This document shows, one piece after another, positions 13,245 through 60,576 of a DNA stretch of 64,000 nucleotides. Location: positions 13,743-77,742 of the forward strand of contig CACKIH010000002.1 in NCBI GenBank assembly GCA_902600225.1, given 5' to 3'. Source of the stretch: an uncultured Alphaproteobacteria bacterium. Lineage in GTDB: Bacteria > Pseudomonadota > Alphaproteobacteria > HIMB59 > GCA-002718135. A model generated the notes under the pieces. That model searched no databases. It worked only from the letters and a program-made list of their open reading frames with translations, and was not told where the DNA came from. The stretch's first letter is position 1. The number at the start of each line of letters is the position of its first letter. A program made the position numbers and the translations under genes.

Positions 13245-13775
13245 TTAGTAAGGTATATGATAAGAAAAGCTTAGAATTTCAACTCCTGGATTTTTGTCAC
13301 CTAAATTTGCGTTTGAAATGTGACTAAATGAAATACCAATTCTATTTTGATTTTTTAATTCATAACTTAATTCAAATGAAGTTCTAAACTGTAGATTGTG
13401 TCCTAATTTTTTTCCAGAACCATCATCATAAATACCTGCCCCAAAACTTGGTGTAAAAAAAAATTTACTTTTATCTCCCTCCAATAATTCACCTATATTA
13501 TCTTCAAAATAAATACCAGTTAAAAAATAAGTAGCTGAGTCGTTTGTATACTCAACACCAAAGAAAGGTTTCAAGAAAAAAAAATTGTCTTCTTCTGGAC
13601 CAATATCAAGTAATGATTTATCACTTCTATATTCATATCTAAAGTCTGTAGCTTGATTTTTTTCAGAGCCATCAAATTTAATATCATAAATACCTAATCC
13701 GAATACATTTGTTCCTTTGCTAGCTAAAGAATTTGAAAAAAAAATAATCACTAATGGGATAAGTATTCTGATCAC
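13245..13775 (-). CDS. Outer-membrane acyloxyacyl hydrolase, lipid A 3-O-deacylase (PagL)-like
   Basis: Has a signal peptide, alternating beta-strand sequence, and a C-terminal FSHISNANLGDKNPGVEILSFSYHIPY that carries the H-x-S-N catalytic motif of the PagL family. Confidence 0.55.
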   Translation of the reverse strand: MIRILIPLVIIFFSNSLASKGTNVFGLGIYDIKFDGSEKNQATDFRYEYRSDKSLLDIGPEEDNFFFLKPFFGVEYTNDSATYFLTGIYFEDNIGELLEGDKSKFFFTPSFGAGIYDDGSGKKLGHNLQFRTSFELSYELKNQNRIGISFSHISNANLGDKNPGVEILSFSYHIPY

Positions 13776-13806
13776 AATATTATCTTATAATTATTTGATT
13801 AAGCTA

Positions 13807-14673
13807 TCAAATAAAAAATTCTTTATTTTGTTGAGATATATCTAATAGAGCTTTTTTTAGTTTATCTAGTGCTTTTGTTTCTATTTGCCTTACTCTTTCT
13901 TTGCTTATTTTTAATTTTTGTCCTAGTTCATCCAAAGTTATACTTCTCTCTCTAAATTTTCTGAGACGAATAATCGTTTTCTCTCTCTCATTTAAAGTAT
14001 CAATTGCTTGATTAATAAAATCTTTTTTTATATTCTTATCATTAAAATCTTCATATGACTCTTCAGGATTTTGACGCTCATCTGCTAAAAGACTCATTAG
14101 ATCATTTTCAGTTTCGTTATCAACTTTTTGATTAAGATGTAAGTCACCTCCAGTAAGTCTTGATTCCATGTTTTGAACTTCTATAGATTTAACATTAAGC
14201 ATATTTGATACTTTGTTAAGCTCTTCTTGACCCATAAATTCTCTTGATACATCATTAATTTGTTGTTTAATTTTTTTAAGATTAAAAAATAGAGCTTTCT
14301 GAGAGGCAGTAGAACCAGTTCTTACCACTGACCAGTTTTTTAAAATATAATCCTGAATAGAAGCTCTAATCCACCATGAAGCATAAGTTGAAAGTCTGAA
14401 ATCTTTAGAAGTATCGAATTTTTCTAAAGCATGCATAATTCCCAAAACACCCTCATGAATTAGATCGTCTATAGGTAAACCATAGCTAGAATATTTTCTT
14501 GCATATGAAATGGCTAATCGCAGATAAGAGTTAAGAATCTTTTGCAACGATTTTGGGGTTTTATTATCTCTCCAATCATTAATTAAATAGAATTCTTCTT
14601 CTTTTTCAAGAATTGCAGCTTTTTTTGAAAGCTCAATAAGATTGTTAGAAAAATAACGATTTTTTAAATCCAT
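13807..14673 (-). CDS. rpoH: RNA polymerase sigma-32 (heat shock) factor
   Basis: Sigma-70 regions 2-4 are present, along with an RpoH-box-like QKALFFNLKKIK. Length is 288 aa. Confidence 0.9.
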   Translation of the reverse strand: MDLKNRYFSNNLIELSKKAAILEKEEEFYLINDWRDNKTPKSLQKILNSYLRLAISYARKYSSYGLPIDDLIHEGVLGIMHALEKFDTSKDFRLSTYASWWIRASIQDYILKNWSVVRTGSTASQKALFFNLKKIKQQINDVSREFMGQEELNKVSNMLNVKSIEVQNMESRLTGGDLHLNQKVDNETENDLMSLLADERQNPEESYEDFNDKNIKKDFINQAIDTLNEREKTIIRLRKFRERSITLDELGQKLKISKERVRQIETKALDKLKKALLDISQQNKEFFI

Positions 14674-14704
14674 ATATTATTATACGTAGCGTATTTAGTT
14701 TAGA

Positions 14705-15517
14705 TCAATTATTTTCAAATAAATCTAATATTTCCCCATTTTCAGTAAATATACCGCATAAAACACTTTTGTTGAATAAAGGCTGTTTAAACAAAGTACA
14801 AACAATATTTTTTTTTGAAATTTCTTGCTGATTTAAGTGTTCAGATTCATACCCTCTAACAATTCTCAAAAACGTTTTATAAGGTCTGTCTATTGTAGAA
14901 AAGTTTTGAAAACCCCACCAAAAACAATCGTTTTGAGCAGATAACGGTCTAGTTATATCTACACCTCTGTTAACAAATAATATTTTTTTTGTATTTGAAT
15001 ATGCAGCGTGTTTCAAATTTAAAAAGTATTGTGTATGACCTAAATTGTTTTGAAGAGTTTTATTTAGAGTTGTTGTCCATTTTGATATATTCATGGTTCC
15101 AGATGAGGCTATGCGTTTGACTTCACTCTCAGAAAAACCATATGATTTTATTGTTTCATTTACACCATGATCGAACATCCATTCAATTATCTCAGTCGGG
15201 TTGGGGGCAAGTTGAAGTTGTAATAATTTACTAAACATTTCTTCTTGTGCTCCTCTTAGAAATACTATCGACTCGGGTTTTAATTTATATTTTGCCATCA
15301 ATCTAAATCTTAAATCTATAACGCTACTGAGAGTTTCTTTCGAATTATTCCCAAGTCCAATAACGTTACCAAGAAAAATTAATTTATCATATTCTTCAAA
15401 ATTATTTAGAAGGAATTTTTTTATAGAATTAAAAGATTTTAGATTTGAATGAATAGAGCCAATTGCCCATATTTTATTAGATTTTTTTAATTCTACAAAA
15501 TTACTTTTTTTATCCAA
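14705..15517 (-). CDS. Metallophosphoesterase-fold protein with degenerate metal-binding motifs (putative pseudo-phosphatase)
   Basis: The layout is collinear with PPP/ApaH-type phosphatases: WAIGSIHSN (for GDxHG), LIFLGNVIGLG (for GDxxDRG) and FLRGAQEEMF (for GNHE). The acidic and His/Asn ligands are replaced. Confidence 0.6.
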   Translation of the reverse strand: MDKKSNFVELKKSNKIWAIGSIHSNLKSFNSIKKFLLNNFEEYDKLIFLGNVIGLGNNSKETLSSVIDLRFRLMAKYKLKPESIVFLRGAQEEMFSKLLQLQLAPNPTEIIEWMFDHGVNETIKSYGFSESEVKRIASSGTMNISKWTTTLNKTLQNNLGHTQYFLNLKHAAYSNTKKILFVNRGVDITRPLSAQNDCFWWGFQNFSTIDRPYKTFLRIVRGYESEHLNQQEISKKNIVCTLFKQPLFNKSVLCGIFTENGEILDLFENN

Positions 15518-15521
15518 AATA

Positions 15522-16025
15522 TTATTTGTTACTCAAAATTTGTTCTATTTTTTCTGTCGATTGAAAATAATCAGTTTTTTCAACAGCTGCAACTTCTCTT
15601 GCTAAACGCTCTATTGCCACCTGAAACATTTGTCTTTCACTATATGATTGTTCAGCTTGACTACTTTTTCTAAATAAGTCTCTAACTACTTCAGAGATTT
15701 TTACAGGATCACCTGAAAAAATCTTTGTTTCATATTCTTGAGCCCTTCTGCTCCACATAATTCTTCTAATTCTTGGTTTGAGTTTTAATGTTGAATATAC
15801 TTCGTCTATAGTTTTTTTTGAAGAAATTTTTCTGAGACCAACCTCATCTTTTTTATCAAGAGGTACTCTTATTATGAGTTTAGATTGTTCCATCTTGACA
15901 ACATAAAAACTCGTTTTGATATTGGCCACTTCCATATTTTCAATTTTTGTTATCTCTCCTACTCCATGTTTAGGGTAAACTACCATCTCACCAATTTTAA
16001 ATTCAGAACTTTTTTTTGCTTTCAT
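15522..16025 (-). CDS. carD: CarD/CdnL family RNA polymerase-binding transcription regulator
   Basis: FKIGEMVVYPKHGVGEI forms the Tudor-like N-domain. Length is 167 aa, and the gene is adjacent to fdxA as in other alphaproteobacteria. Confidence 0.9.
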   Translation of the reverse strand: MKAKKSSEFKIGEMVVYPKHGVGEITKIENMEVANIKTSFYVVKMEQSKLIIRVPLDKKDEVGLRKISSKKTIDEVYSTLKLKPRIRRIMWSRRAQEYETKIFSGDPVKISEVVRDLFRKSSQAEQSYSERQMFQVAIERLAREVAAVEKTDYFQSTEKIEQILSNK

Positions 16026-16358
16026 TTATCTTCCTGGTTTTTCACTAAAGTGCTTATTAAACTTATCTTGAATATTCTGCCACTCTTCTGCATCAGCTGG
16101 AGGTTCTTTTTTTTCAGAAATATTGGGCCAAATTTCTGAGTATTTTCTATTTATTTCAGCCCATTTTTCTATACCATCTTCTGTATCTGATAAAATTGCC
16201 TCAACAGGACATTCCGGCTCACAAACGCCACAATCTATACATTCATCAGGATGTATAACTAGCATATTTTCCCCTTCATAGAAACAATCTACAGGACAAA
16301 CTTCCACACAATCCATGTGCTTACATTTTATACATTTTTCATCAACAACGTATGTCAT
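16026..16358 (-). CDS. fdxA: Ferredoxin, 7Fe (3Fe-4S/4Fe-4S) type
   Basis: Contains the cluster motifs [18 protein letters not shown] and [12 protein letters not shown]. Confidence 0.9.
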
Positions 16359-16359
16359 A

Positions 16360-16806
16360 TTACTTTTGGTTTTTATCTAGAGCTCTTTTCTTTGCATTTC
16401 CAGAGTCTACATCAGAAATATAAAGTAATCCAGCTAGTCTTCTTATAAGATTTGATTCAAAATCATGAACCTCTCCATCAGATAAGACAATTTCCCATAG
16501 AGTTTCAATAAGAAGAATTTTCTTTTTATCATCAAAATTTTTATTAATAAAAGAAGTGTAATGATGAAGAGATTTAGAATTATTTTTATTTTCTTCTGCC
16601 TTTTCAAGAACTAAATTAACTTCTTTTGGATCCTCAGAAAAAATGTTGATTAAACTTAGTTTTATTTTATTTAATTCAATTTCATCAATTTGACCATCTG
16701 TATATGCAGCTTCGATCATTAATCCACAAAGTAATTCTAAATCTTTGTTATTATTATCTTCTTTAGAATTTTGACTGTTTAAAATATTTTTTAATAAATT
16801 TAGCAA
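16360..16806 (-). CDS. TerB-like (tellurite resistance TerB / DjlA N-domain fold) protein
   Basis: Carries two acidic repeats of the A..DG.i...E type ([13 protein letters not shown] and [11 protein letters not shown]). Length is 148 aa. Confidence 0.5.
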
Positions 16807-16826
16807 TTTATACCTACAATATACAT

Positions 16827-19376
16827 TTAAAGAAGTTTTTCTAAAACTGCAAAAGGAGAATTAGGGTCTTTTTTAATTTTATCTTTCTTAATTGTTTTAC
16901 TTATTTTTTTATTAGATTTAACATTTACTGTCTTTTTTAACTCCCTTTCTTTATTGGGAAGAAAAAATAGTTTCTTCTCATCAGAAATAATTACATATTC
17001 ATATCCACAAAAGGTCATAATATCTTTTAATTGATTGCTATTACAACCTATTGGATTCATAAGATCAGATGATTCTAGAAATGGACCTTTCTTTAATTTT
17101 TGTCTTGCAATAAAAAAAACTTTTTCAAAAACATCTATTCTGAAAATAAAATTTTTTATATTTATATAACCTATTGATTTCCAATAATTGTCAGGCATTT
17201 TAGTTTCAGATGTGAAAGATACCCTGCCATTTGATGGTAATGGCAAAAATTCATCATTACTATTTTGATAATATGTTTTCCATAATATGGCACTAAGCTC
17301 TAAAGGTTTTTTCTTTAATAAATTAGGTATAAAAAAATACTTTGCACCAATTCTTATTCCTAGCTTTGAAAGTTGTGTTTTACTTTCCTGAGAAATTGTC
17401 TTTAAAGTATCTTTAAATTTTTCAATTGGGTAATTTCCAAAATTTTCGAGACAATTAAAAACAATTGCCCTAACTTCTGAATTTATATTTTCATCTAATT
17501 TTTTGTTAAGAGGATGAAGGGTATCATTTATTTCTTTATCCAGCCATTTCTGAAGTTTTGCAGAAACCAATAATTTATTTTCTGACGATAAATATTCAGA
17601 ATTTAAAGCATCAGCAATTGGCTTATATATTGAATTTCCTTTTTTTAATTTTCCTATTGGCTCATCACCCCAATAAATAAAGGTGTCGTCTTTTATCTTG
17701 GAATTACTAATTTCACCAAAATTTATTGAGTCAAAGGGTGAATTCAAAAAATTTTCTACTTTTTCATTAATCATGTTTCTTACCGATTTTTTTATATTAC
17801 TAATCGAAAAAAAAGATTGTGAATATATATTCTTTTGTTCAATTAGATCAAAACCTTTAATAATTCCATATTTATTCTTGTCTAGAAATATTTCATTTTT
17901 ATTTTTTATAAGATTATCTTCAATATTTAGAAATTCTTTTTCTCCAATAAAAAATTTTGAAGAATAATCTATAAATTTATTTGTAAGACTATTATGTAAT
18001 TGATCAGATAATTCATTTTCTATTTTTTGTGTTTTTTCTTGCCAATAGTATGTATTTTTAAGCCAGTTGTGATTATTTGAAATATATGTCCAGGTTCTGA
18101 TTTGAGAAATTTTAATTGAAAGTTCAGGTATGCCACCTCCAAAGTTGTTAAGCTTACTTATCTTACTATTGATCCATTCTTCAGGTATACGATAATTATT
18201 ATCGATTAAGATTAAATATATATCTTTTAAGAGTAGTAAATAATTATCATTAAACAGTTTTTCAAAATCTGGTATTTGACATATATTCCATAGTAACTTT
18301 AAATTTTTTTTTGATTTAAGAAATTTTTGAACATCAATGTCGTTAATTAAATTACGAAAATTAATCTCATCCAGAGCATTTTTTTTATGAATGAAATAAC
18401 TATTAATAGGATATTTTTTTAATGAAGATAATAATGTTTGTGTAGAATTGAAATCTAAATCACTATTTCTCCAATAAAATTTTTGAATTTTATCAAAGTT
18501 ATGGTTCTCTATCTGTTGAATGATTAAGGGATCTAAATTACCTGCTTCTTTTGTATGACTAAATGTGCCATCCTGTTTATATCTACCTGCTCTTCCAGCA
18601 ATTTGACCTAATTCATTAGGAGTAAGATTTCGATTATATCTACCATCAAATTTCTCTAGCGATGAGAAGCTTACATGATTAATATTTAAATTTAAACCCA
18701 TCCCAATAGCATCTGTAGCTACAAGATAATCAACATTTTTGTTTTCGTATATCTCAACTTGTGCATTTCTAGTTCTTGGACTGAGTGAGCCTAATACAAC
18801 CGCAGTACCGCCCTTATAGGTCCTAATATTTTCGGCAATTTCATAAACCTTATTAATATTAAATGCTATTATTGCGGATCTAGGTTCAAGTTTAGAAAAA
18901 TTTTGTTTTCTTAAAAAAGTAAGTTGAGAAAATCGATTTTTTTTTTCAATAATAATATTTGGGTAAATTTTTTTTAGTATATTTTCAACATTCATTGATC
19001 CTAAAAAAATGGTTTGAAAGTTACCTTTTAAATTTAGAATTCTATCTGTAAAAATATGCCCACGTTCATAATCAGCAGCTAATTGAATCTCATCAATAAT
19101 AACACAATCTACGGGAATATCATTTGGCATTGACTCAACAGTGCAGAAAAAATATTTGGCTTCTTTGGGTAATATTTTTTCCTCACCAGTAACTAAAGCT
19201 ACTTTACTTAGTCCAATTCTTTTTACTGCTTTGTCATAATTTTCCCTCGCAAGTAGTCTTAAAGGAAAGCCAAATATTCCAGAAGAGAAAGAGAGTAATT
19301 TTTCAAATGCTGCATAGGTTTTACCTGTATTAGTAGGCCCAAGTATGGCTAATAGGTTTTCATTTGTATTAGACAT
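16827..19376 (-). CDS. SUV3-like ATP-dependent helicase with long uncharacterised C-terminal extension
   Basis: Contains GPTNTGKTYAAFEKL (motif I), PLRLLARENYDK, IIDEIQ (motif II) and QIAGRAGR (motif VI), all within the first ~300 aa. The remaining ~500 aa have no motif I recognise. Confidence 0.75.
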   Translation of the reverse strand: MSNTNENLLAILGPTNTGKTYAAFEKLLSFSSGIFGFPLRLLARENYDKAVKRIGLSKVALVTGEEKILPKEAKYFFCTVESMPNDIPVDCVIIDEIQLAADYERGHIFTDRILNLKGNFQTIFLGSMNVENILKKIYPNIIIEKKNRFSQLTFLRKQNFSKLEPRSAIIAFNINKVYEIAENIRTYKGGTAVVLGSLSPRTRNAQVEIYENKNVDYLVATDAIGMGLNLNINHVSFSSLEKFDGRYNRNLTPNELGQIAGRAGRYKQDGTFSHTKEAGNLDPLIIQQIENHNFDKIQKFYWRNSDLDFNSTQTLLSSLKKYPINSYFIHKKNALDEINFRNLINDIDVQKFLKSKKNLKLLWNICQIPDFEKLFNDNYLLLLKDIYLILIDNNYRIPEEWINSKISKLNNFGGGIPELSIKISQIRTWTYISNNHNWLKNTYYWQEKTQKIENELSDQLHNSLTNKFIDYSSKFFIGEKEFLNIEDNLIKNKNEIFLDKNKYGIIKGFDLIEQKNIYSQSFFSISNIKKSVRNMINEKVENFLNSPFDSINFGEISNSKIKDDTFIYWGDEPIGKLKKGNSIYKPIADALNSEYLSSENKLLVSAKLQKWLDKEINDTLHPLNKKLDENINSEVRAIVFNCLENFGNYPIEKFKDTLKTISQESKTQLSKLGIRIGAKYFFIPNLLKKKPLELSAILWKTYYQNSNDEFLPLPSNGRVSFTSETKMPDNYWKSIGYINIKNFIFRIDVFEKVFFIARQKLKKGPFLESSDLMNPIGCNSNQLKDIMTFCGYEYVIISDEKKLFFLPNKERELKKTVNVKSNKKISKTIKKDKIKKDPNSPFAVLEKLL

Positions 19377-50848: not shown

Positions 50849-52377
50849 TTTTGATAATAAAAAAAATAGTATTTATATTTATAACTTCTAAATTTAATTC
50901 AAAAAAAAATTTATCTTATTTAGACTTAAACTTTAGAAAAATAGATTTTACAAATCATGATAAAGTAAAGACATTTATTTTTAAAAAAAATTTTTATACT
51001 TTCAAAAATAAGAATATTCATAGTTTTGATTTTTTAAATTTCTCAAATAAACTTGGTGGTAAAATAGGAATAAATTTATCTAAAAAAGCTATCTTTGGTT
51101 GGTATAAATTAAACAAAAATAAGCTTGGCTTTCCTTGGGTAGAAGATTTGTCTTCAAAAAGACTGATAAATCTTTTGTATAACTATGAATATATAAATTC
51201 TGCATCTAAAGAAGATGACAAGAAAAAATTAGATTTTATAATTTATTTTCACATTCAAAGAATTTTATTTGACTTCAACTCAAAAAAAATAACTGAATTT
51301 ACTTCATTTGATTTAATAGCATACTTGTTGTCTTGCTTGCTCCTAAAAAAAATTAATGAAACAGAAATTAATTATATTAAGTTTATTGTTGATAACCAGA
51401 TTGATAAAATCGGTGTGCATAAAAGTTATAATTTCTTAGAACATTCTAAGTTTATAAATAATCTCAATGAAATAAAAAATATATTACTTTTTTTTAAATC
51501 AAAGAAATCAAATGTGTTTGATGAAGTAATTCTTAAAATGTCATCGATATTAAATGAATATTTTCACTTAGATGGTTCACTAGCTTTATTTAACGGTACT
51601 AATAATGTTTATACAATGAATATCTACAAATCATTAAACAAAGAGAGTTACTTAAAAAAACGAGATTTTTCAAATATTAATAATGGAATTGCATTTTACT
51701 CAGATACGAATAAAAAAATTTTTTTTGATGTAGTACAGCCAAATTCTGATATGATAAGTTCTAGCTTGAGTGCTGGAACTCTATCGGTTGAATTAAGCGG
51801 TTTTGGAGAGAAAATTCTTACAAATTGTGGTGCATCAGAAAACTTTGGGAAGAATCCTGAATATTTGAGATACAGTGCAGCCCATTCAACTATTATTTTA
51901 CAAAATACTAATATAAGTGAAATAAAGGAAGACAATCCACATGTAAAATTTCCACAATCAGTGGTCTTTAGAAAAGAAGCAAATGATCAAGAAGAAATAT
52001 TTGAAGGATCACATAATGGATATTTAAAAAAGTTTAATAAAATAATAAAAAGAAGATTAGTTATTTATAAAAATAAAAATAAATTAGAGGGCGAAGATAG
52101 CTTTATTTCATACAAAAATCAGAATGCTCGAATGATTTACCATATTAGATTTCACTTAGCAAATGAAATGGTCTTAAATTTTACAAATAATAAAAAAAAT
52201 ATAATTTTAAAAACAAAAAAGAACAATATATGGTTATTTAAAAGTAATACGGAACTTATAATAGAAGATAGTATATCAGTTGATAATAATATTACAAAGC
52301 CTACTAAACAAATTGTGATTAAAGGTGTATTGTTAAATAAAAAAATTATAGAGAAATGGTCCTTAGAAAAAATCTAA
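50845..52377 (+). CDS. Hypothetical protein, heparinase II/III-like family candidate
   Basis: A 510-aa protein located between rsmB and purH. From memory, many alphaproteobacteria carry a heparinase II/III-like ORF at this position. I cannot verify a motif-level match by eye. Confidence 0.45.
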   Translation: MILIIKKIVFIFITSKFNSKKNLSYLDLNFRKIDFTNHDKVKTFIFKKNFYTFKNKNIHSFDFLNFSNKLGGKIGINLSKKAIFGWYKLNKNKLGFPWVEDLSSKRLINLLYNYEYINSASKEDDKKKLDFIIYFHIQRILFDFNSKKITEFTSFDLIAYLLSCLLLKKINETEINYIKFIVDNQIDKIGVHKSYNFLEHSKFINNLNEIKNILLFFKSKKSNVFDEVILKMSSILNEYFHLDGSLALFNGTNNVYTMNIYKSLNKESYLKKRDFSNINNGIAFYSDTNKKIFFDVVQPNSDMISSSLSAGTLSVELSGFGEKILTNCGASENFGKNPEYLRYSAAHSTIILQNTNISEIKEDNPHVKFPQSVVFRKEANDQEEIFEGSHNGYLKKFNKIIKRRLVIYKNKNKLEGEDSFISYKNQNARMIYHIRFHLANEMVLNFTNNKKNIILKTKKNNIWLFKSNTELIIEDSISVDNNITKPTKQIVIKGVLLNKKIIEKWSLEKI

Positions 52378-52961
52378 AAAAAAAATTTGCTTTAATATCT
52401 GTATTTGAAAAAAAAAATTTAAAGTATCTCTGTTCAAACTTAAATAAATTTAATTATAGTCTTATGTCTAGTGGATCTACTGGAAATAAAATTCGCGAAT
52501 TAGGATTTAAATGTAAAGATATTTCAAAAATAACAAATTCTAAAGAGATGTTTGGCGGTAGAGTTAAAACATTAAATCCATTAATATACAGTTCATTACT
52601 TTACATAAGAGATGATAAAATTCATAAAAAACAGTTTCAATTATTAAACATACCTGAAATAGATATTGTTGTTGTTAACTTATATCCATTTAAAAGTTAT
52701 TTAAAAAAAAATAATAATGATCAACTTATTGAAATGATTGATATTGGTGGACCAAGTTTATTAAGAGCTGCCGGAAAAAACTTTAAATACATAACTCCAA
52801 TAGCTGATATAATGGACTATAAAAAATTAGTAACAAATTTAAGTAAAAATAAAGGAAAAACTGACATTATTTTTAGAAAACAAATGGCTCTTAAAGTTTT
52901 TAAACAAACAGCACAATATGACAAAATTATTTATAATTGGCTAAATGAAAAGCAAAGATAG
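52356..52961 (+). CDS. purH: PurH N-terminal domain (IMP cyclohydrolase, MGS-like) as separate ORF
   Basis: Contains GGRVKTL, VVNLYPF, IDIGGPSLLRAAGKN and ALKVFKQTAQYD. The ORF ends WLNEKQR* at the position of the interdomain linker. Confidence 0.8.
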   Translation: MVLRKNLKKKFALISVFEKKNLKYLCSNLNKFNYSLMSSGSTGNKIRELGFKCKDISKITNSKEMFGGRVKTLNPLIYSSLLYIRDDKIHKKQFQLLNIPEIDIVVVNLYPFKSYLKKNNNDQLIEMIDIGGPSLLRAAGKNFKYITPIADIMDYKKLVTNLSKNKGKTDIIFRKQMALKVFKQTAQYDKIIYNWLNEKQR

Positions 52962-53862
52962 TAAAATAAAATTAAGATATGGAGAAAATCCAAATCAAAG
53001 AAGCTATTTGATGAGTAATAAAAAAAATTCAATTTTTACCTATCAAATTAGTGGGAAACAAATAAGTTATAACAATTTAATTGATATTGATAGCGGACTA
53101 AAATGTTTAAAAGAATTTCCTGAGCCTACTTCCATAATTCTTAAACATACTAATCCTTGTGGTATAGCTTCAGCGAAAAACATAGAGATGGCCTTTAATA
53201 GATCTTATGAAAGTGACCCTAAAAGTGCTTTTGGAGGAATAATTTTTCTAAATAGAAGAGTGACTTATAAACTTGCAATGAAAATATACAAAAATTTTTA
53301 CGAGATGATAGTTGCATTAGATTTCAATCAAGATGCACTAAAAATTTTAAAAAAGAAGAAGAATTTAATTTTATTAAAAATACCCAATATAAAGAAAACA
53401 ACTCTTGAATATAGATCTACTTTATTTGGTGATCTTTATCAAACAACAGATTTAGATACAATTAATAGAAAATTTTTAACTTTAGTTTCAGAAAAGAATG
53501 GTTCAACTAAATCAATTAATGATTTAATTTTTTCACTGAAAGTTGCAAAACACTTAAAATCAAATGCTATTGTTTTATCAAGAAACAAACAAACTCTAGG
53601 TTTAGGTCATGGTCATACAAATAGAGTAGATGCATTACATTATGCAATTAAAAATATGAATAAATATTTTAAAAAAGGTACTTTTGTTTGTGCTTCAGAC
53701 GGTTTTTTTCCTTTTGTAGACAGTATAAACCTACTCAATAGGAATGGATGCAATGCTGTAGCTCAACCTGGTGGCTCAATAAATGATAAACTAATAATTT
53801 CTTTTTCAATAAAAAATAAATTACCATTGTATTTCATAAAAAACAGACTCTTTAAACATTGA
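52945..53862 (+). CDS. purH: PurH C-terminal domain (AICAR formyltransferase) as separate ORF
   Basis: Contains LRYGENPNQ, SYNNLIDIDS, KHTNPCGIA, DPKSAFGGII, SDGFFPF, AQPGGSIND and the terminal RLFKH. Its own ATG lies at 52945, in a different frame from the upstream ORF. Confidence 0.85.
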   Translation: MKSKDSKIKLRYGENPNQRSYLMSNKKNSIFTYQISGKQISYNNLIDIDSGLKCLKEFPEPTSIILKHTNPCGIASAKNIEMAFNRSYESDPKSAFGGIIFLNRRVTYKLAMKIYKNFYEMIVALDFNQDALKILKKKKNLILLKIPNIKKTTLEYRSTLFGDLYQTTDLDTINRKFLTLVSEKNGSTKSINDLIFSLKVAKHLKSNAIVLSRNKQTLGLGHGHTNRVDALHYAIKNMNKYFKKGTFVCASDGFFPFVDSINLLNRNGCNAVAQPGGSINDKLIISFSIKNKLPLYFIKNRLFKH

Positions 53863-54018: not shown

Positions 54019-54783
54019 TTAAGAAGAGATATTATTAAAAATATTTTCCCAAGCTTCTCCAGTTTCTATCTCTTTGAGAGTCCACTGACCATATGCTAAA
54101 TTATTAAAAATTTTATAATCTATGATAGGATTTTCTATGTTCTGTATTTTACCTATATTACATAAGGTTTGATCAGTAAAGTATGAAGGGATTCCGTTAC
54201 ACATTGCCATAAAACCAGCTGTTGATTGCAAACTAACAAATGCCCACGCATCTTTTAATAATAAACTCAATGGTTTTTTTGCTAATTTATTATGTACTAC
54301 AATTCTTCTATCAGAGTATTTTTTTACTAATTGTGTTGTCTCTTCTGTCCACTTAGGCACGTTATACATTTTTTTCATAGTTTCAGATGGTTCAGAAAGG
54401 ATTATATAGCTGCCTGTTTTTTTTTGATCATGTATCTTTAAATTTAGTTTACTTAATCTATCACTTGGAAAATTACCCCTACCATCGTGTATAAAGTTAT
54501 TATAAACAATTCTAAAATAACCATCCATATTTTTAACTTTAGTCGATTTACTTTCAAATATTCTTTCTGATTGATTAAAATAACCATGGTCCATATAATA
54601 AAAATTTTTAACTTTATTGATTACTTCAAGAGTTCCTCTTAACACTCCATAAGTTGCAATAGTTTTATTAAATTCCTTAAAATTATCTACATGACACAAA
54701 GGAGAATCAGAACCTTTGGCAAAATTATAACATAGAGTTCTATTCATTATATGGTCTGTATAAATTACTATGGGTTTTTCCAT
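54019..54783 (-). CDS. Hypothetical protein (254 aa), island orphan
   Basis: Long ORF with no signal peptide or TM. It has alternating beta-alpha character (IVIYTD..., YIILSEPSE..., RIVVHNK..., AFVSLQSTAGFMAMCNGIP) suggesting a Rossmann-like transferase fold. That reading is speculative. Confidence 0.5.
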   Translation of the reverse strand: MEKPIVIYTDHIMNRTLCYNFAKGSDSPLCHVDNFKEFNKTIATYGVLRGTLEVINKVKNFYYMDHGYFNQSERIFESKSTKVKNMDGYFRIVYNNFIHDGRGNFPSDRLSKLNLKIHDQKKTGSYIILSEPSETMKKMYNVPKWTEETTQLVKKYSDRRIVVHNKLAKKPLSLLLKDAWAFVSLQSTAGFMAMCNGIPSYFTDQTLCNIGKIQNIENPIIDYKIFNNLAYGQWTLKEIETGEAWENIFNNISS

Positions 54784-54844
54784 TATATTGAGTGTATAAA
54801 CTAATAAGTTTTTTATAATAAAGCGAAACGCTTAATAACGGTAT

Positions 54845-56380
54845 CTATTTCTTTTTAAAAATTATTTTTACTTCTGAATTAGGTTGAATTTCACTAAGTG
54901 TGTCTTCTTTTTTTTTATATGAAAACTTAATAGAATTTTTTTTATTACTAAAATTAAATATTCTCAATTCTGTTTTTTCATCTGACAATTCACGAATCAA
55001 CGGCAAACACCCTGCTGTTATAGTAGCTGATTTAAATTTTATTAAATAATCAGATTTTCCAAGGTTTTCATTACTACCAATAATTAACTTTGTATAACAT
55101 CCTGTAACCGGTCCAATTCCCCAATTTCTACCATGTCCAGATATTATAGAGCTAAAATGCTTTCCAGAGTCTGAGTGTTCACAGCCAAGACGGAGTATGG
55201 ATGAAGCAATTTTAATTTTTTTAGCAGCAGTTCTAAAAGCCCTTTCTGCGTATTCAATTTTACCAGTAATATTATACAGCAATGAGAAATATGAAGTTGA
55301 GGGTTCTGTTAATTCTTTAGGCTCAAAAGCGTTAAAGAAATACCAATAAATCATGTCTTTTCTATTTCCTAAACCAGGTCTTCTAATTGTTTGGTTCTGT
55401 GGAAATGTTAACATGATTTCTGAATCGTCATAAGGTTTTAAATTAGATATAGAATCTAAAACTAACTTATCAAAATAATAATCAGAAAAAGCATTTCTAT
55501 AATAAGAAATAATTGCTCCCACATTATCAGAATATGGATGCTTAATGATAGGGATTAATTTTTTGATTATTTTTTTTGAGGCTTCCAAAAAAATATTATC
55601 ATTTGTTATATGATAAAGCTCGCCAAATATATATATAAAACCTGATGTAATTAAATTTTCAATTCCTGAAAAGGGATCATCTTTGAAATGATGGTGGTTT
55701 GATGCTAAAAATTTTTCTTCTGGGTTTATCATATCTTTTGAAAAAAACTCATCCCATTCACAATTCCAAGCAACGGGTATGGTTTCTTTTGCAATAATGA
55801 TTTTCTCAGCAAATTTTTTACTATAATTAATTGACCAGTCTAAATATTTTTGATCTGAAGTTATATTCCATGCCAGTAAAGATATATGAACAAATCTTAA
55901 ATGATCAGCAGTATTAAATTTGTAATTGTCTCTTTCGCTTATACCATCGCTACCAAAATACCAGCTGTTAAAGTTTTTAAGTGAATAATTATACCAGTCT
56001 TCAGTTTCTTTATCCCAATTTCCAATTAATTTAGAAACATTTATAATTAATTCTTTTGCTTTTACATCTTCAGGAAAGAGATCTATGTATCTAGGTAAAA
56101 AACCTAAAAAAAGTTCTGATCCATGATGAACATCCTCCATTTTAAAATATCCTTTGTGGAGATTTTTTTCTGCCCAGTTGATCAATTTTTTTCCCATATA
56201 AAATAAAAAATTTTTATTAGATTCATTTGGATCTATTAAATAATCATGGAAAAGAGATATACAATAATTTGCATTATCACCTTGATAAATTGAATTAGAA
56301 AAACTGTCTAACGCTTCTTTATTAATAAGTTTTTTGATTTCTTGATTTATTGTTAATGCTGATTCAAATAAAATTTTCAT
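54845..56380 (-). CDS. Hypothetical protein (511 aa), island orphan
   Basis: Long ORF that overlaps the upstream sulfotransferase gene by 4 nt. The first ~400 aa are rich in aromatics (W/Y/F/H), followed by a ~100-aa beta-rich tail. I recognise no family. Confidence 0.5.
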   Translation of the reverse strand: MKILFESALTINQEIKKLINKEALDSFSNSIYQGDNANYCISLFHDYLIDPNESNKNFLFYMGKKLINWAEKNLHKGYFKMEDVHHGSELFLGFLPRYIDLFPEDVKAKELIINVSKLIGNWDKETEDWYNYSLKNFNSWYFGSDGISERDNYKFNTADHLRFVHISLLAWNITSDQKYLDWSINYSKKFAEKIIIAKETIPVAWNCEWDEFFSKDMINPEEKFLASNHHHFKDDPFSGIENLITSGFIYIFGELYHITNDNIFLEASKKIIKKLIPIIKHPYSDNVGAIISYYRNAFSDYYFDKLVLDSISNLKPYDDSEIMLTFPQNQTIRRPGLGNRKDMIYWYFFNAFEPKELTEPSTSYFSLLYNITGKIEYAERAFRTAAKKIKIASSILRLGCEHSDSGKHFSSIISGHGRNWGIGPVTGCYTKLIIGSNENLGKSDYLIKFKSATITAGCLPLIRELSDEKTELRIFNFSNKKNSIKFSYKKKEDTLSEIQPNSEVKIIFKKK

Positions 56381-57003
56381 TTTTGTATTAATTTAAAGTC
56401 TTTTGCATATATTTTTTCAATTTTATCAATCTGCAAGCCAGTCAGTTTTACTTTAATATCACTTCCACCAGTTTGGATTTTGGGAAAGATAACTTTTCTT
56501 GAAAAAAAATCGTTAACCTGTTCAGCAAAAAAACTAATCTCTTCTACTGTAGACCAAAAAGTATAATAACTTAAATCTTCACCCAAAAAATACACCTGCG
56601 GTAAAAAATGTCTATTCTCAAAATTATTATTTTCAAGCTTTTCAAGTATCATATCAACTGAATGATCTTTAAATTGAATATCGCGATGATAAAGTATTCT
56701 GTTTTTATATGCAGAAATAAACCTTTTAATAGGGTCTCTTACAATACAACATTTAATATCTACATTAATTCTTTCAAAAGGCTGTTTGGATGGAATTATT
56801 CCTATAATATTTTGTTTGCTCCCATATTGCTCCGGAGTTTGTTCTATCTGGGGTATTTCATCTCCTAAAAAAAGATAGTGTTTATCAATGTTTAAATGTT
56901 TAGCAAAAAACATTTTAGCAGAAGTGTTAGCGTTTTTAGGACATGGGTAGTAGATTAGTTTTTTATTTGTAATCTTATTAGTAAATACAGCATATTTTGA
57001 CAT
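56377..57003 (-). CDS. Sulfotransferase (Sulfotransfer_2/carbohydrate-type-like)
   Basis: The 5'-PSB-like motif is YYPCPKNANTSAKMFF and the 3'-PB-like motif is CIVRDPIKRFISAYKNR. Length is 208 aa. Confidence 0.65.
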   Translation of the reverse strand: MSKYAVFTNKITNKKLIYYPCPKNANTSAKMFFAKHLNIDKHYLFLGDEIPQIEQTPEQYGSKQNIIGIIPSKQPFERINVDIKCCIVRDPIKRFISAYKNRILYHRDIQFKDHSVDMILEKLENNNFENRHFLPQVYFLGEDLSYYTFWSTVEEISFFAEQVNDFFSRKVIFPKIQTGGSDIKVKLTGLQIDKIEKIYAKDFKLIQK

Positions 57004-57055
57004 TTTCTATTTACTAAAAAAATTTAAGATATATTTTCTTCTTAATAAATAAATC

Positions 57056-57652
57056 ATGTCTAATCCTAATCTTTTCTTCTCTACACCTGTTTGGGTTTCT
57101 AATATAAATAATTATAAAGAAACTAATGAAAAAATATATCATTACATTAAAGATTTATATAGTGAAGATAACAAAGGAATCATTCGAAGCAATGTTAAAG
57201 GCTGGCACTCCAACAATTTTAATTTAGAAGATGAAAATGTAGTTGAATTTATTAATTTGATTTCTCCAAATATTAACAATGTTTTAAATGATATGAATTG
57301 GGATATAACTAAACAAAGAGCAAGGATGTCAGCTATGTGGGCAATCATTAATATTGGCGGAGCTTCCAATTCTAGACATCATCATGGAAATTGCGACATA
57401 AGTGGAGCATATTATGTAAGAGCACCTAAAAATTGTGGTGAGATTGTTTTTTATGATCCAAGACCCGCCCCAGTATACTTTCATCCATTATCAACAAAAC
57501 CAAACAGTTTAAATGCTATGCAGAATTCAGTAAATCCTGTGGAAGGTGGTCTAGTTATCTTTCCTAGTTATTTAGATCATTCAGTGAACCCAAATCTCAG
57601 TAATCAAGAGAGAATTGTAATAAGTTTTAATATTAATTTAGTTAGGAAATAA
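57056..57652 (+). CDS. 2OG-Fe(II) oxygenase superfamily protein (TIGR02466/PF13759-like)
   Basis: Contains FSTPVWVSNI, KGWHSNNF, SNSRHHHGNCDISGAYYV, LVIFPSYLDHSVNPN and RIVISFNI. This pattern is typical of the small marine/phage 2OG oxygenase family. Confidence 0.7.
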   Translation: MSNPNLFFSTPVWVSNINNYKETNEKIYHYIKDLYSEDNKGIIRSNVKGWHSNNFNLEDENVVEFINLISPNINNVLNDMNWDITKQRARMSAMWAIINIGGASNSRHHHGNCDISGAYYVRAPKNCGEIVFYDPRPAPVYFHPLSTKPNSLNAMQNSVNPVEGGLVIFPSYLDHSVNPNLSNQERIVISFNINLVRK

Positions 57653-57655
57653 ATT

Positions 57656-58495
57656 TTATAATTTTACGAACAATTTTTTTATATCCTGTTCTTTATATAA
57701 TTTGTCATCTGTTTTGTAATATGGAGATACTATGCATATGTTTTTATTATACTTATCATCCTTGTTAATTTTAAAATTGTTTTTAAATTCAGTAATTTTT
57801 CTGTAAATTATAAAATCATAATAATAATATTGATTAATTAAATTTATATCTTCTTTTTTGGGTGAATAAAAAAAATTATATTTATGTTCTTGAAACTTAG
57901 AATATAAAATTGATGGAAATCCAAATAAACTAAGTATTTCTGACAAAAACTGATCCCAATTTTCAAGTGTATAGATTGAATCAAATGACTTAGTGTTGTT
58001 AATAGCTTCTAAACAGACATTATCTACAATTTCTTTTTTTTCATTTAAAAAACCAGAAAAGTGTCTTGTTATCAAATTATCCCTATTCTTTCTAACTTCT
58101 TCATTTATAAATATCTGAAAAGGATATTTTTCTGGTGTTGTGTTTAATCTAAAAACCATAAATTTATAATGTGAAATTACTCTGCTTATTGGTTCTCTAA
58201 CAACAGAACATTTGTATATATTTTTTAAATTATTACAAAAATCATAATTTAAATGGCCTGAGATAAAATACTTTTTTGAATAATCAATTTCGTTTTGGCT
58301 TAATTTATTTTTTTTTATTTCCTTACTATTTTTAAATCTTTTGAAATTATAATTTTTTAAAATTGAAAAAACTTTTACAAAAATATGGTCAATAGTTGTG
58401 CCTCCACATTTTGGTATATGCATAAAGTATATGGATTTATCTAAATTATTTTTAGTATTAATTTTGCTGGGAACAAATTTAAGTTCTATTTTCAT
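57656..58495 (-). CDS. Sulfotransferase (Sulfotransfer_2/3-like)
   Basis: The 5'-PSB is FMHIPKCGGTTIDHIF and the 3'-PB is SVVREPISRVISHYKF. Length is 279 aa. Confidence 0.7.
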   Translation of the reverse strand: MKIELKFVPSKINTKNNLDKSIYFMHIPKCGGTTIDHIFVKVFSILKNYNFKRFKNSKEIKKNKLSQNEIDYSKKYFISGHLNYDFCNNLKNIYKCSVVREPISRVISHYKFMVFRLNTTPEKYPFQIFINEEVRKNRDNLITRHFSGFLNEKKEIVDNVCLEAINNTKSFDSIYTLENWDQFLSEILSLFGFPSILYSKFQEHKYNFFYSPKKEDINLINQYYYYDFIIYRKITEFKNNFKINKDDKYNKNICIVSPYYKTDDKLYKEQDIKKLFVKL

Positions 58496-58584
58496 GATGT
58501 CAGTATGACTAATAACAAATCTAAGTTTAATATAGCATATTGAGATGTTGCTTTAATGTCACGCAATATTTTTTAGAGAAAAGA

Positions 58585-58621
58585 TGGAGCAGGCTAAGAA
58601 GTTCGGGCCATCGACTTCAAC
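58585..58621 (-). other. Decayed copy of the 3' half of tRNA-Gly(GCC) (att-like scar / pseudo-tRNA fragment)
   Basis: I aligned tggagcaggctaagaagttcgggccatcgacttcaac to tggagcgggcgaagggattcgaaccctcgacttcaac (60502-60538) by hand. They match at 29 of 37 positions in the same orientation. The copy includes the CCA end and stops at the anticodon stem. Confidence 0.65.
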
Positions 58622-58745
58622 TATGTAATGCTTACAAACATTAAAGGATAAGCAAAGTTTTAGGATAATATATCTTTTATTAGACCAAAAATATTGAATT
58701 ATTTTTTATTGATAGCATGTTAATAATGAATAAAAGAAAGTTCTA

Positions 58746-60368
58746 ATGAATTATAAAGATCTAATTAAATATGGAATTAATTTAGCACAAAATGGAAAGC
58801 TTATAGAGGCTGAGAATAATTTTAAGATAGCTATTGAAAAAGATTCAGGTCTTACTGATTCATATATTAATTTGGCAAATGTATATATAATGCAGAGGAA
58901 AATTGAAGAGGCCATTAATTTATTAAAGACCTATTTAATTAATATATCTTTTAATCAAAATATCATTGATCATATTTGGAAAATTAGCCAAAATTTTAAT
59001 AGAGAAGAAAAGTTCTTTGAAATAATTAATTCTTATGAGGATTCAAAAAATCTAAATAAAAAAGAATTAGCTTACATATATTATATACATGGAAGATATT
59101 ATGCTAAATTAAATGACATTGAATTGTCAATTAAATATTTTAAAAAATCTATATTTTTTGATGAACTATTCACTGATAGTTACATCAATCTTTTAGACTG
59201 GTTAGAAAGAATAAATGAAATTTCGCAAGCAAACTTATATTTAAATAAGTTTAATAATATAGTAAAAAAAACTGATTATAAAATAAAGTTTTTTGAAGCA
59301 TTATTATTGTCAAGAGGAAAAAAATTTAAAGCATCTGAAAATATTCTAAATAAATATAAATTAGAAAAATATTTCGAAAAAGATAAATACTATTTCATTA
59401 AACTATTAAATCTTAAATCAAAAAATAATGAAAGGTTAAAAAATTTTTCAATAGCTTATAATTCTATTGTGAAAAGAAACTTATTTTTATCTAGTTTAGA
59501 AGAAAATCAAAAAATTGATAGGGGTGATATTGATCAAACAATACAAAATTATAAAGAAGTTTACTCAAAAGAAAATAAACATGTTGATATAAATAAATTA
59601 AAAATAGGTAAAGAAATTGACCTGACTTTTTTAATTGGATTTCCTAGATCAGGTACTACTTTACTAGATACTATATTACGCACTCATTCAAAAACACTTG
59701 TTTTAGAGGAAAAACTTTATCTTGAAAACACAAGAAATTATTACTTTACTTCTAAAAATAATAAACTTGATGCGATTAAAAACATTTCATTAAAAGAAAT
59801 AATAAATTTGCGCAAATATTATTTTGATCAAATAAACATTGATGATAAAAATATAACAACAGTAATTGATAAACTACCTCTTACAATTACAGAATTGGGA
59901 TTTGTAAAAAAAATTTTTCCAGATGCTAAAATAATTCTGGCATTAAGACATCCATGTGATGTGGTCATAAGCTGTTTTTTTAGCTCTTTCAAAATGAATA
60001 GGGCAATGATTAATTTTTTGAGTATTAAAAACACAGTAGATTTTTATAATAAAGTATTAGATCTATTTGAATTTTATGAGAACAAGTTAAATCTCGAAAT
60101 TATAAAAATAAAATATGAAGATATTGTCTTTGATTTTGAAAATGAAACAAAAAAATTATTTAAATTTTTAAATCTTGACTATGAGAGTAGTATAAATAAA
60201 TTTTATGAAACTGCTAAAAGTAGAAAAATGATATCAACACCCAGTTACTCACAAGTAACTAATCCTATTTATTCAAGCTCTATTGATAGATGGAAAAATT
60301 ATGAATCTTTAGTCAAAATTGAAAAACCTTTAAGAAAATGGATAAAGAGACTGAATTATTTAAACTGA
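58746..60368 (+). CDS. TPR-repeat protein with C-terminal sulfotransferase domain
   Basis: The N-terminal ~280 aa are TPR-like helical repeats. The C-terminal part carries the 5'-PSB LIGFPRSGTTLLDTIL and the 3'-PB LALRHPCDVVISCF. Confidence 0.75.
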   Translation: MNYKDLIKYGINLAQNGKLIEAENNFKIAIEKDSGLTDSYINLANVYIMQRKIEEAINLLKTYLINISFNQNIIDHIWKISQNFNREEKFFEIINSYEDSKNLNKKELAYIYYIHGRYYAKLNDIELSIKYFKKSIFFDELFTDSYINLLDWLERINEISQANLYLNKFNNIVKKTDYKIKFFEALLLSRGKKFKASENILNKYKLEKYFEKDKYYFIKLLNLKSKNNERLKNFSIAYNSIVKRNLFLSSLEENQKIDRGDIDQTIQNYKEVYSKENKHVDINKLKIGKEIDLTFLIGFPRSGTTLLDTILRTHSKTLVLEEKLYLENTRNYYFTSKNNKLDAIKNISLKEIINLRKYYFDQINIDDKNITTVIDKLPLTITELGFVKKIFPDAKIILALRHPCDVVISCFFSSFKMNRAMINFLSIKNTVDFYNKVLDLFEFYENKLNLEIIKIKYEDIVFDFENETKKLFKFLNLDYESSINKFYETAKSRKMISTPSYSQVTNPIYSSSIDRWKNYESLVKIEKPLRKWIKRLNYLN

Positions 60369-60501
60369 AACTTCCTTTTGAGTTGGACAATTGAATAGAT
60401 ACATTATTCAATTTAATTGTTTTAAATTATGAAACAAATACCTTAAATATATTGAATTATATTGAGGAGTTTATTACAGAAATAAAAATGGAGTTAGAAT
60501 T

Positions 60502-60576
60502 TGGAGCGGGCGAAGGGATTCGAACCCTCGACTTCAACCTTGGCAAGGTTGCGCTCTACCCCTGAGCTACGCCCGC
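60502..60576 (-). tRNA. tRNA-Gly (anticodon GCC), CCA encoded
   Basis: I folded the cloverleaf by hand. The acceptor stem is GCGGGCG/CGCCCGC, the D arm GCTC-AGGGGTA-GAGC, the anticodon arm CAACC-TTGCCAA-GGTTG and the T arm GAGGG-TTCGAAT-CCCTT, with 3' TCCA. Total length is 75 nt. Confidence 0.95.

Follow-up and report, generated by a model that had tools for sequence, protein, structure and literature searches.

[quoted passage not shown] It lies in a 250-nt gap separating two divergent genes and aligns with the tRNA-Gly gene (60502-60538) on the same strand at 29 of 37 positions, starting from the encoded CCA, in agreement with the hand alignment of the initial annotation. The clear match covers tRNA-Gly positions 39-75, with the encoded CCA included. 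Because ARAGORN places tRNA-Gly(GCC) at 60502-60576 on the minus strand, the copy is a direct repeat located 1,880 nt past the 3′ end of the tRNA. With ungapped scoring (+2/−3), the match reached a score of 34, higher than the best score of every one of 300 dinucleotide-preserving shuffles of the window, both strands included (mean, 21.7; sd, 1.9; maximum, 33), and an nhmmer search of the whole window with the tRNA gave E = 0.0015 for the copy. Its GC content is 54%, compared with 23% for the remainder of the 250-nt intergenic region and 27% for the window.

Two details of the initial annotation need to be revised. The similarity had been said to end at the anticodon stem, but the nhmmer alignment continues to tRNA position 26/27 (window 58633/58634), and 7 of the 14 bases at tRNA positions 25-38 match, against 3.2 expected (P = 0.02). 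This fits the 51-nt repeat length seen in relatives, and the copy was probably once longer than 37 nt; counted over the whole scar (58585-58635 on the minus strand, clear to 58621 and weaker to 58635), 36 of 51 positions are identical to the tRNA. The T-arm of the copy had likewise been described as unable to pair, but 4 of 5 T-stem pairs are still possible when G-U pairs are counted. As read from the sequence, the T-loop TTC has changed to CCC and the 5′ half is absent; therefore, the copy is not a tRNA. With the tRNA as query, nhmmer detected no other significant tRNA-like copy anywhere in the window. A weak tRNA-like match at ~55252-55306 (score, 25; nhmmer E = 0.41) lies inside a 511-aa open reading frame (ORF), recurs in the L010 ortholog of that ORF, and was treated as chance.

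The island that contains the scar runs from the tRNA through a TPR-sulfotransferase gene, the decayed repeat, a 279-aa sulfotransferase gene, a 2OG oxygenase gene, a 208-aa Sulfotransfer_2 gene, and ORFs of 511 and 254 aa to purH. tRNA-Gly(GCC) (60502-60576, minus strand; Rfam tRNA, 70.9 bits), the sole tRNA that ARAGORN finds in the window, is the island anchor and would be the attachment gene (attL side); past it lie the retinal/carotenoid genes blh, crtY, and crtB (Pfam). Its positions 25-75 (60502-60552, minus strand) form the 51-nt core that is repeated in relatives and spans the anticodon stem-loop, variable loop, T-arm, acceptor 3′ strand, and CCA. A single-gene unit (58622-60501) fills the space from the tRNA 3′ end to the decayed repeat; its cargo is a 540-aa TPR-sulfotransferase (58746-60368, plus strand; Pfam Sulfotransfer_3 and TPR). 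The 279-aa Sulfotransfer_2 gene (57656-58495, minus strand; Pfam) is the cargo of a second cassette; it converges with the oxygenase gene, the two stop codons being 3 nt apart, and the distal repeat of this cassette is missing from the window. In the purH-proximal part of the interval (54019-57652), where nhmmer detected no tRNA repeats, are the 2OG-Fe(II) oxygenase gene (57056-57652, plus strand; Pfam), the 208-aa Sulfotransfer_2 gene (56377-57003, minus strand; Pfam), and two ORFs of unknown function, one of 511 aa (54845-56380, minus strand) and one of 254 aa (54019-54783, minus strand). The left island boundary, supported by synteny in relatives, is purH (52356-53862, plus strand; Pfam AICARFT_IMPCHas), which is present as two overlapping ORFs. 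These ORFs (52356-52961 and 52945-53862) overlap by 17 nt in different frames and encode a 201-aa MGS/IMP-cyclohydrolase and a 305-aa AICAR-transformylase, with the break in the inter-domain linker. The split form (~199-201 aa plus 305 aa) occurs in most related loci, and a fused purH of ~503 aa is found in another subclade (L003, L033, L034, L054, L058, L059, and L152); either a conserved split of the gene or a programmed frameshift may underlie this arrangement.

To place the scar in its population context, relatives were gathered with a Blh protein scan, one genome per species, which yielded 68 SAR11 loci (here given L numbers) from single-cell or metagenome-assembled genomes. An identical tRNA-Gly follows blh in 67 of the 68. 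Among these 67 loci, the distance from the tRNA to purH ranges from ~2.6 kb to >10 kb and the gene content is very different, with the differing cassettes that the initial annotation had anticipated. An empty site, with the tRNA directly beside purH, had been anticipated as well and was not found among the 67 loci, the smallest interval being ~2.6 kb (L053).

A scan with the tRNA sequence revealed one to six extra direct copies of the tRNA-Gly 3′ end downstream of the tRNA in 51 of the 67 loci, and this bounding of cassettes by direct repeats supports the original proposal of an integration scar left by a tRNA-targeting element. Of the 102 extra copies, 52 have tRNA position 25 as their exact first base, and others start just inside it, at position 26 (4 copies) or position 27 (11 copies). 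Copies that begin at position 25 form a 51-nt block, usually 51/51 identical, and this block (positions 25-75) takes in the whole anticodon stem-loop rather than ending at the anticodon stem, as the first reading had it. A second, shorter class of repeat begins at position ~45 or 53, and a few copies are nearly full-length tRNAs. Altogether, 104 repeat-bounded units were counted in 52 loci. The higher the rank of a repeat, counted from the tRNA, the less intact it tends to be (Spearman rho = −0.44, P = 3e-6): exact repeats make up 65% of those at rank 1 but 34% and 21% of those at ranks 2 and 3, in line with the earlier suggestion that the locus is a hotspot of serial insertion; on these sequences, the hotspot extends across the population. 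The cassette bodies are ~84-87% identical between genomes, about as diverged as core genes, and yet their repeats are often perfect, as would be seen if the tRNA ends displaced by successive integrations had each been under selection up to that event. No general recent transfer was seen when cassette identity was compared with core identity; the alternative-oxidase cassette alone is clearly above the core (95.5% versus 87.6%).

The second-class, T-loop-type repeats (position ~45 or 53 to 75) were observed in L008, L016 (e.g., 13291-17107), L038, L048, and L065. They are preceded by TTGCAATATAG-like tandem repeats and bound cassettes for small proteins with N-terminal signal-peptide-like sequences; as many as six of these T-loop-type repeats follow one another. 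Upstream of the relatives' 51-nt repeats, the adjoining 24 nt retain some likeness to the tRNA 5′ half (7.0 versus 4.3 matches of 24), and G18-T19-A20 is kept in 70-90% of 36 distinct upstream flanks. This weak likeness suggests that the attachment sites of the elements derive from full-length tRNA copies.

A copy at the place orthologous to the window scar is present in a single-cell genome (L146) and in five Tara contigs (L147-L151), all of which share with the window the order of TPR-sulfotransferase, 279-aa sulfotransferase, and oxygenase genes. The orthologous copy matches the tRNA at 28 of 51 positions, compared with 36 of 51 for the window copy. The window and L147 scars differ from each other at 19 positions; of these, the tRNA base is kept by the window in 12, by L147 in 4, and by neither in 3; in the L147 scar, 18 of 23 changes are GC to AT (a bias of 18:1). 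From which lineage keeps the tRNA bases, it appears that the two scars descend from a much more tRNA-like ancestor and decay independently. The window and L147 are identical at 32 of 51 positions in the repeat and at 169 of 199 positions in the flanking intergenic DNA, and this faster divergence of the repeat indicates that the scar is not conserved for function. The insertion of the TPR-sulfotransferase unit is accordingly dated as older than the split from the L146/L147 lineage.

The scar is not carried by all relatives. L014 and L071 (a metagenome contig) lack the segment equivalent to window 57681-58624, that is, the scar and almost all of the 279-aa gene, and one end of this deletion lies at most a few bases from the point of the scar that corresponds to the anticodon loop. 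Clean excision was considered as the origin of this state and rejected; because no hybrid repeat is present at the junction, we treat the state as a plain deletion (or as a different history). The sequence of L010 diverges ~80 nt from the scar. Taken at the sequence level, the repeat is real, lies at a cassette boundary, and evolves without constraint.

The units at this locus behave as movable cassettes: recurrent ones occupy different ranks in different genomes, and their orientation is always the same. Examples are a ~1.3-kb cassette for a 275-aa Sulfotransfer_1 protein (14 units at ranks 1-5), a cassette of 0.58 kb whose ORF is 97 aa long (12 units at ranks 1-3), and one of 2.04 kb that encodes an alternative oxidase together with an ABM monooxygenase and a flavodoxin-like protein (4 units). 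In L022 (14383-14472), L029, L030, L043, L050, and L056, the 275-aa sulfotransferase cassette occurs in a variant that bears a tRNA-Ser(TGA) on the opposite strand just inside its distal repeat.

The TPR-sulfotransferase gene itself occurs in L010, L014, L071, and L146-L149 with 85-92% amino acid identity, similar to that of the flanking core genes, and there it follows a well-preserved tRNA repeat and not the tRNA itself. Other units have come between: the 97-aa cassette and an exact repeat in L010, the 275-aa sulfotransferase cassette and a 50/51 repeat in L014, and a methyltransferase cassette and repeat in L146 and L147-L149, with a primase-bearing element and its repeat in addition in L146. 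Since these newer units lie on the tRNA side of the TPR-sulfotransferase gene, the order of the array is newest nearest the tRNA, and the view that this gene arrived as the cargo of an insertion at tRNA-Gly gains support. A metagenome scan with the TPR-sulfotransferase returned one locus, L071, which is the second scar-less relative and has no intact distal repeat; none of the relatives compared has an intact repeat distal to the TPR-sulfotransferase unit.

The initial annotation had further proposed that an older sulfotransferase module (54019-58495) was pushed outward by the later insertion. This holds for the 279-aa sulfotransferase gene, which is itself a cassette, judging by its surroundings in relatives: in L152, an 87%-identical homolog lies between an exact 51-nt repeat and a 44/51 repeat, and in L147-L151, a decayed copy (E = 1e-4), absent from the window, is found between the 279-aa gene and the oxygenase gene. 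For the rest of the module, outward movement is not borne out, because the oxygenase and 254-aa genes are nearly universal and 54845-57003 has no flanking repeat. Of the related loci, 42 have the oxygenase gene and 31 the 254-aa gene, and for this reason, both look like long-standing residents and not recent cargo. Between them, the 208-aa and 511-aa pair (54845-57003) is common to the window and L010 only, and L014, L146, and L147 hold a different, 238-aa gene; this slot appears to be of the replacement type because its content is swapped without tRNA repeats.

No integrase was detected in the window by tblastn with the integrases of related loci, as the initial annotation had stated; the lone match is the tRNA itself, where an over-extended ORF runs across it. 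Among relatives, a tyrosine integrase (PF00589, E = 4e-18; phrog_1, E = 1e-47 to 1e-51) is found at the tRNA or a repeat in five loci. It stands directly after the tRNA in L045 and L066, directly before a repeat in L035 and L063, and truncated at the locus end in L061; six more loci have N-terminal integrase fragments behind the tRNA or behind a second copy of it. The L066 element occupies the 5.8 kb between the tRNA and an exact 51-nt repeat; it encodes the integrase and an 868-aa P4/D5-type primase. In L045, the cargo includes an MMPL transporter and a LolA-like protein. The matches of the integrases are to generic phage integrase families, and their scores against Xer/integron-integrase models are far below the cut-offs.

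Short repeats accompany the 51-nt repeats of relatives. An exact direct repeat of at least 8 nt, mostly with an 11-nt period, was found in 47% of repeat flanks, against 4% of control windows. They include paired, exact, GC-rich direct repeats of 8-11 nt with an 11-nt period, which are specific to the cassette family and lie ~85-96 nt upstream of the 51-nt repeats (for example, GCGGGACA, CGTCCCACTT, TGCAGTAGTT, TCCGACACT, and TGGGGGACA; sites include L015 11609, L022 14562, L020 14058, and L042 11703). Such pairs also flank the repeats of integrase-less cassettes. By analogy with the arms of lambda-type attP sites, they look like putative arm-type binding sites of an integrase. By inspection, no 11-nt-period repeats of this kind are present in the window cassette or beside the window scar.

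Based on these observations, the following origin of the scar is proposed. A small circular element carrying the TPR-sulfotransferase gene, with a copy of the last ~51 nt of tRNA-Gly (positions 25-75) in its attachment site, would have recombined site specifically with tRNA-Gly(GCC). The element-borne copy would then complete a functional tRNA-Gly, and the old 3′ segment of the chromosome would move to the far end of the insert, where, freed from selection, it could drift to the present 36/51 overall and 29/37 in its better part. The scar would thus divide the TPR-sulfotransferase cassette from the older 279-aa sulfotransferase cassette, which may have entered by the same route, and repeated rounds would stack units with the oldest furthest from the tRNA. 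In the 51-nt block, the strands of the anticodon stem form a natural inverted repeat around a 7-nt loop. An inverted-repeat stem flanking a 7-nt loop is the classical target geometry of tyrosine integrases at tRNA genes, a geometry for which Williams in 2002 is reportedly the source, and we place the crossover, by inference, in the anticodon stem-loop. The shorter repeat class would fit a T-loop sublocation by the same geometry.

The window copy has the features of an attR-type scar: it is a direct repeat of the tRNA 3′ segment that reaches the tRNA 3′ end, its inner end at 26/27 falls in the shared 25-27 class, and the DNA between tRNA and repeat varies among relatives. An integrase within the element is the one feature that the window itself does not have, and integrases occur at the site in L035, L045, L061, L063, and L066. 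Neither an excised circle nor a free element bearing attP was found among phage records and IMG/VR viral contigs. We infer that the TPR-sulfotransferase unit was inserted by an integrase, acting in trans or since lost, and not by RecA exchange between repeats, and that integrase-less cassettes in general would be served in trans.

The alternative that survives best, although we regard it as unlikely, accepts the described origin of the units and attributes their present arrangement and movement to RecA-dependent homologous recombination between 51-nt repeats, either within a genome or with incoming DNA. An exact identity of 51 nt is long enough for RecA. Most cassettes, and the window, are without an integrase, the cassette bodies are as diverged as core genes, and the second variable slot, from the oxygenase to the 254-aa gene, changes its content with no tRNA repeat at all. 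However, unrelated cassettes share sharp repeat boundaries (position 25, or ~45/53), cassette orientation is fixed, the 11-nt-period repeats keep a constant upstream distance, and integrases are located exactly at repeat junctions. Each of these features speaks for site-specific recombination, at least when a unit first arose. For later movement, RecA exchange across the 51-nt repeats and an integrase acting in trans are inseparable by sequence data alone, and RecA remains a partial alternative to insertion by an integrase.

It is very unlikely that the copy is instead what is left of a duplicated tRNA-Gly gene, a pseudo-tRNA without its 5′ half, with no relation to integrative elements. Such duplicates do exist: L035, L044, and L056 have a second full-length or nearly full-length tRNA-Gly, L002 and L047 have one with a degenerate D-arm, and the 5′-half likeness of the upstream flanks (7.0 versus 4.3 of 24, with G18-T19-A20 in 70-90%) could be read in the same way. 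The window alignment, however, stops at 26/27, the standard cassette boundary, and the full-length second copies of relatives are followed by integrase genes or fragments and are therefore element associated too. Chance similarity is hardly credible, as is a terminator or a conserved RNA of regulatory or structural function, for a GC-rich stretch that, although short, 22% mismatched, and placed between divergent genes where regulatory DNA would be expected, is significant in both the shuffle test and nhmmer, has orthologs that trace to the tRNA sequence, diverges faster than its flanks, is missing from L014 and L071, and gave no match in Rfam and terminator scans, the sub-threshold HPnc0260 match being antisense to the tRNA.

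Going beyond a single insertion by an integrase, the tRNA-Gly(GCC) site may be an integron-like platform, an idea that we put forward tentatively. Integrase-less cassettes, most of them with a single gene, would carry complete attachment sites, each made up of the 51-nt core, a degenerate tRNA 5′ half, and a family-specific 11-nt-period pair ~90 nt upstream, and would be captured, excised, and reshuffled in trans by rare elements that circulate in the population and encode an integrase and a primase. Two integrase specificities, one for the anticodon loop and one for the T-loop, would then operate on one tRNA, and the window scar would be a fossil of this activity.

Reading the stretch as a scar between two cassettes explains the layout of the purH/tRNA-Gly island in the window. 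SAR11 bacteria are often called almost free of mobile elements; yet, at one tRNA site, three-quarters of the sampled genomes have repeat-bounded cassettes, and a few have integrases. The cargo includes sulfotransferases, methyltransferases, an alternative oxidase, and small putative secreted proteins, and the site offers a concrete, testable locus for the gain and loss of single genes in streamlined ocean bacteria.

Temperate pelagiphages of the HTVC019P type have tyrosine integrases that target SAR11 tRNA genes with cores of 11-46 bp, and their att sites lie in tRNA-Cys, tRNA-Leu, and tRNA-Arg (bioRxiv 10.1101/410191). In contrast, the target here is tRNA-Gly, and the window island has no phage genes; an insert of one sulfotransferase gene does not have the makeup of a pelagiphage prophage remnant. 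The initial annotation had looked to pelagiphages for an attP matching the tRNA-Gly 3′ half, but no pelagiphage was among the 57 phage records that matched. In IMG/VR, the exact 51-mer occurs in one viral contig, which is GC-rich, has a full tRNA-Gly, and was set aside as irrelevant, and a 25-mer occurs in 75 loci, of which 8 are low in GC. No phage record and no viral contig from a low-GC host was found to have the tRNA-Gly 51-nt core in these two sources. One of the eight low-GC loci, L072 (IMG/VR contig 3300036820_000038, 32% GC), is the sole one with a partial tRNA-Gly 3′ piece (547-596), at 3 mismatches to SAR11; the piece is followed by an ORF whose N-terminus resembles a P4-type integrase by eye only, and it adjoins another tRNA on the opposite strand.

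The scar is a further case of a known mode of island building, as seen in tycheposons, additive islands, and the partial tRNA repeats of SAR11 islands. Tycheposons in Prochlorococcus islands integrate serially and leave scattered partial tRNAs (Hackl et al., bioRxiv 10.1101/2020.12.28.424599), and for Pelagibacter, elements of a tycheposon-like or tyrosine-recombinase kind have been described close to tRNAs (PMC11876622). The tRNA-Gly locus resembles tycheposons in its integration at a tRNA, its partial tRNA flanks, the displacement of older elements to deeper positions by later ones, the degenerate partial tRNAs and integrase fragments within islands, the cargo-only stretches, and the pairing of integrase and primase in L066. 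It differs in that the target is tRNA-Gly(GCC) in SAR11 and most units are single-gene cassettes of 0.6-2 kb without an integrase; in the window, only the scar is present. The hallmark set of tycheposons, in which a deep-branching tyrosine recombinase and a replication or mobility module are integrated at a tRNA, is absent from the window, and among relatives, L066 has an integrase and a P4/D5-type primase.

The additive islands of Methylophilaceae are defined by recurring tRNA-end repeats. Here, too, the island lies beside a tRNA, direct repeats of the tRNA 3′ end separate strain-variable cassettes, and the locus has the character of an additive flexible genomic island, with 104 units in 52 loci and recurrent families at different ranks. 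The 51-nt repeat, in contrast, is longer and extends from the whole anticodon stem-loop to the CCA, and the shorter ~45/53 class coexists with it. The gMED genomic islands of SAR11 likewise have partial tRNA repeats, with integrases almost absent (Microbiome 2025, PMC11796062). These come from the same organism group; the window copy, at 71-78% identity, is below the 90% criterion used there and would be missed. The ordered, promoter-proximal, mostly single-gene cassettes with fixed orientation, the newest nearest the attachment point, recall integrons. Unlike integrons, the recombination site is a segment of a tRNA gene and no IntI-type integrase is present: the repeats are tRNA derived, and the integrases of the locus score far below Xer/integron-integrase cut-offs. 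No attC was found in SAR11 variable regions in earlier work (Wilhelm et al., PMC2217521). In the literature compared, we found no description of how large the array at tRNA-Gly is, of its two classes of repeat, or of the arm-like repeats, and on present sequence evidence, these appear to extend the known picture; the tycheposon and additive-island concepts are thereby extended and not overturned.
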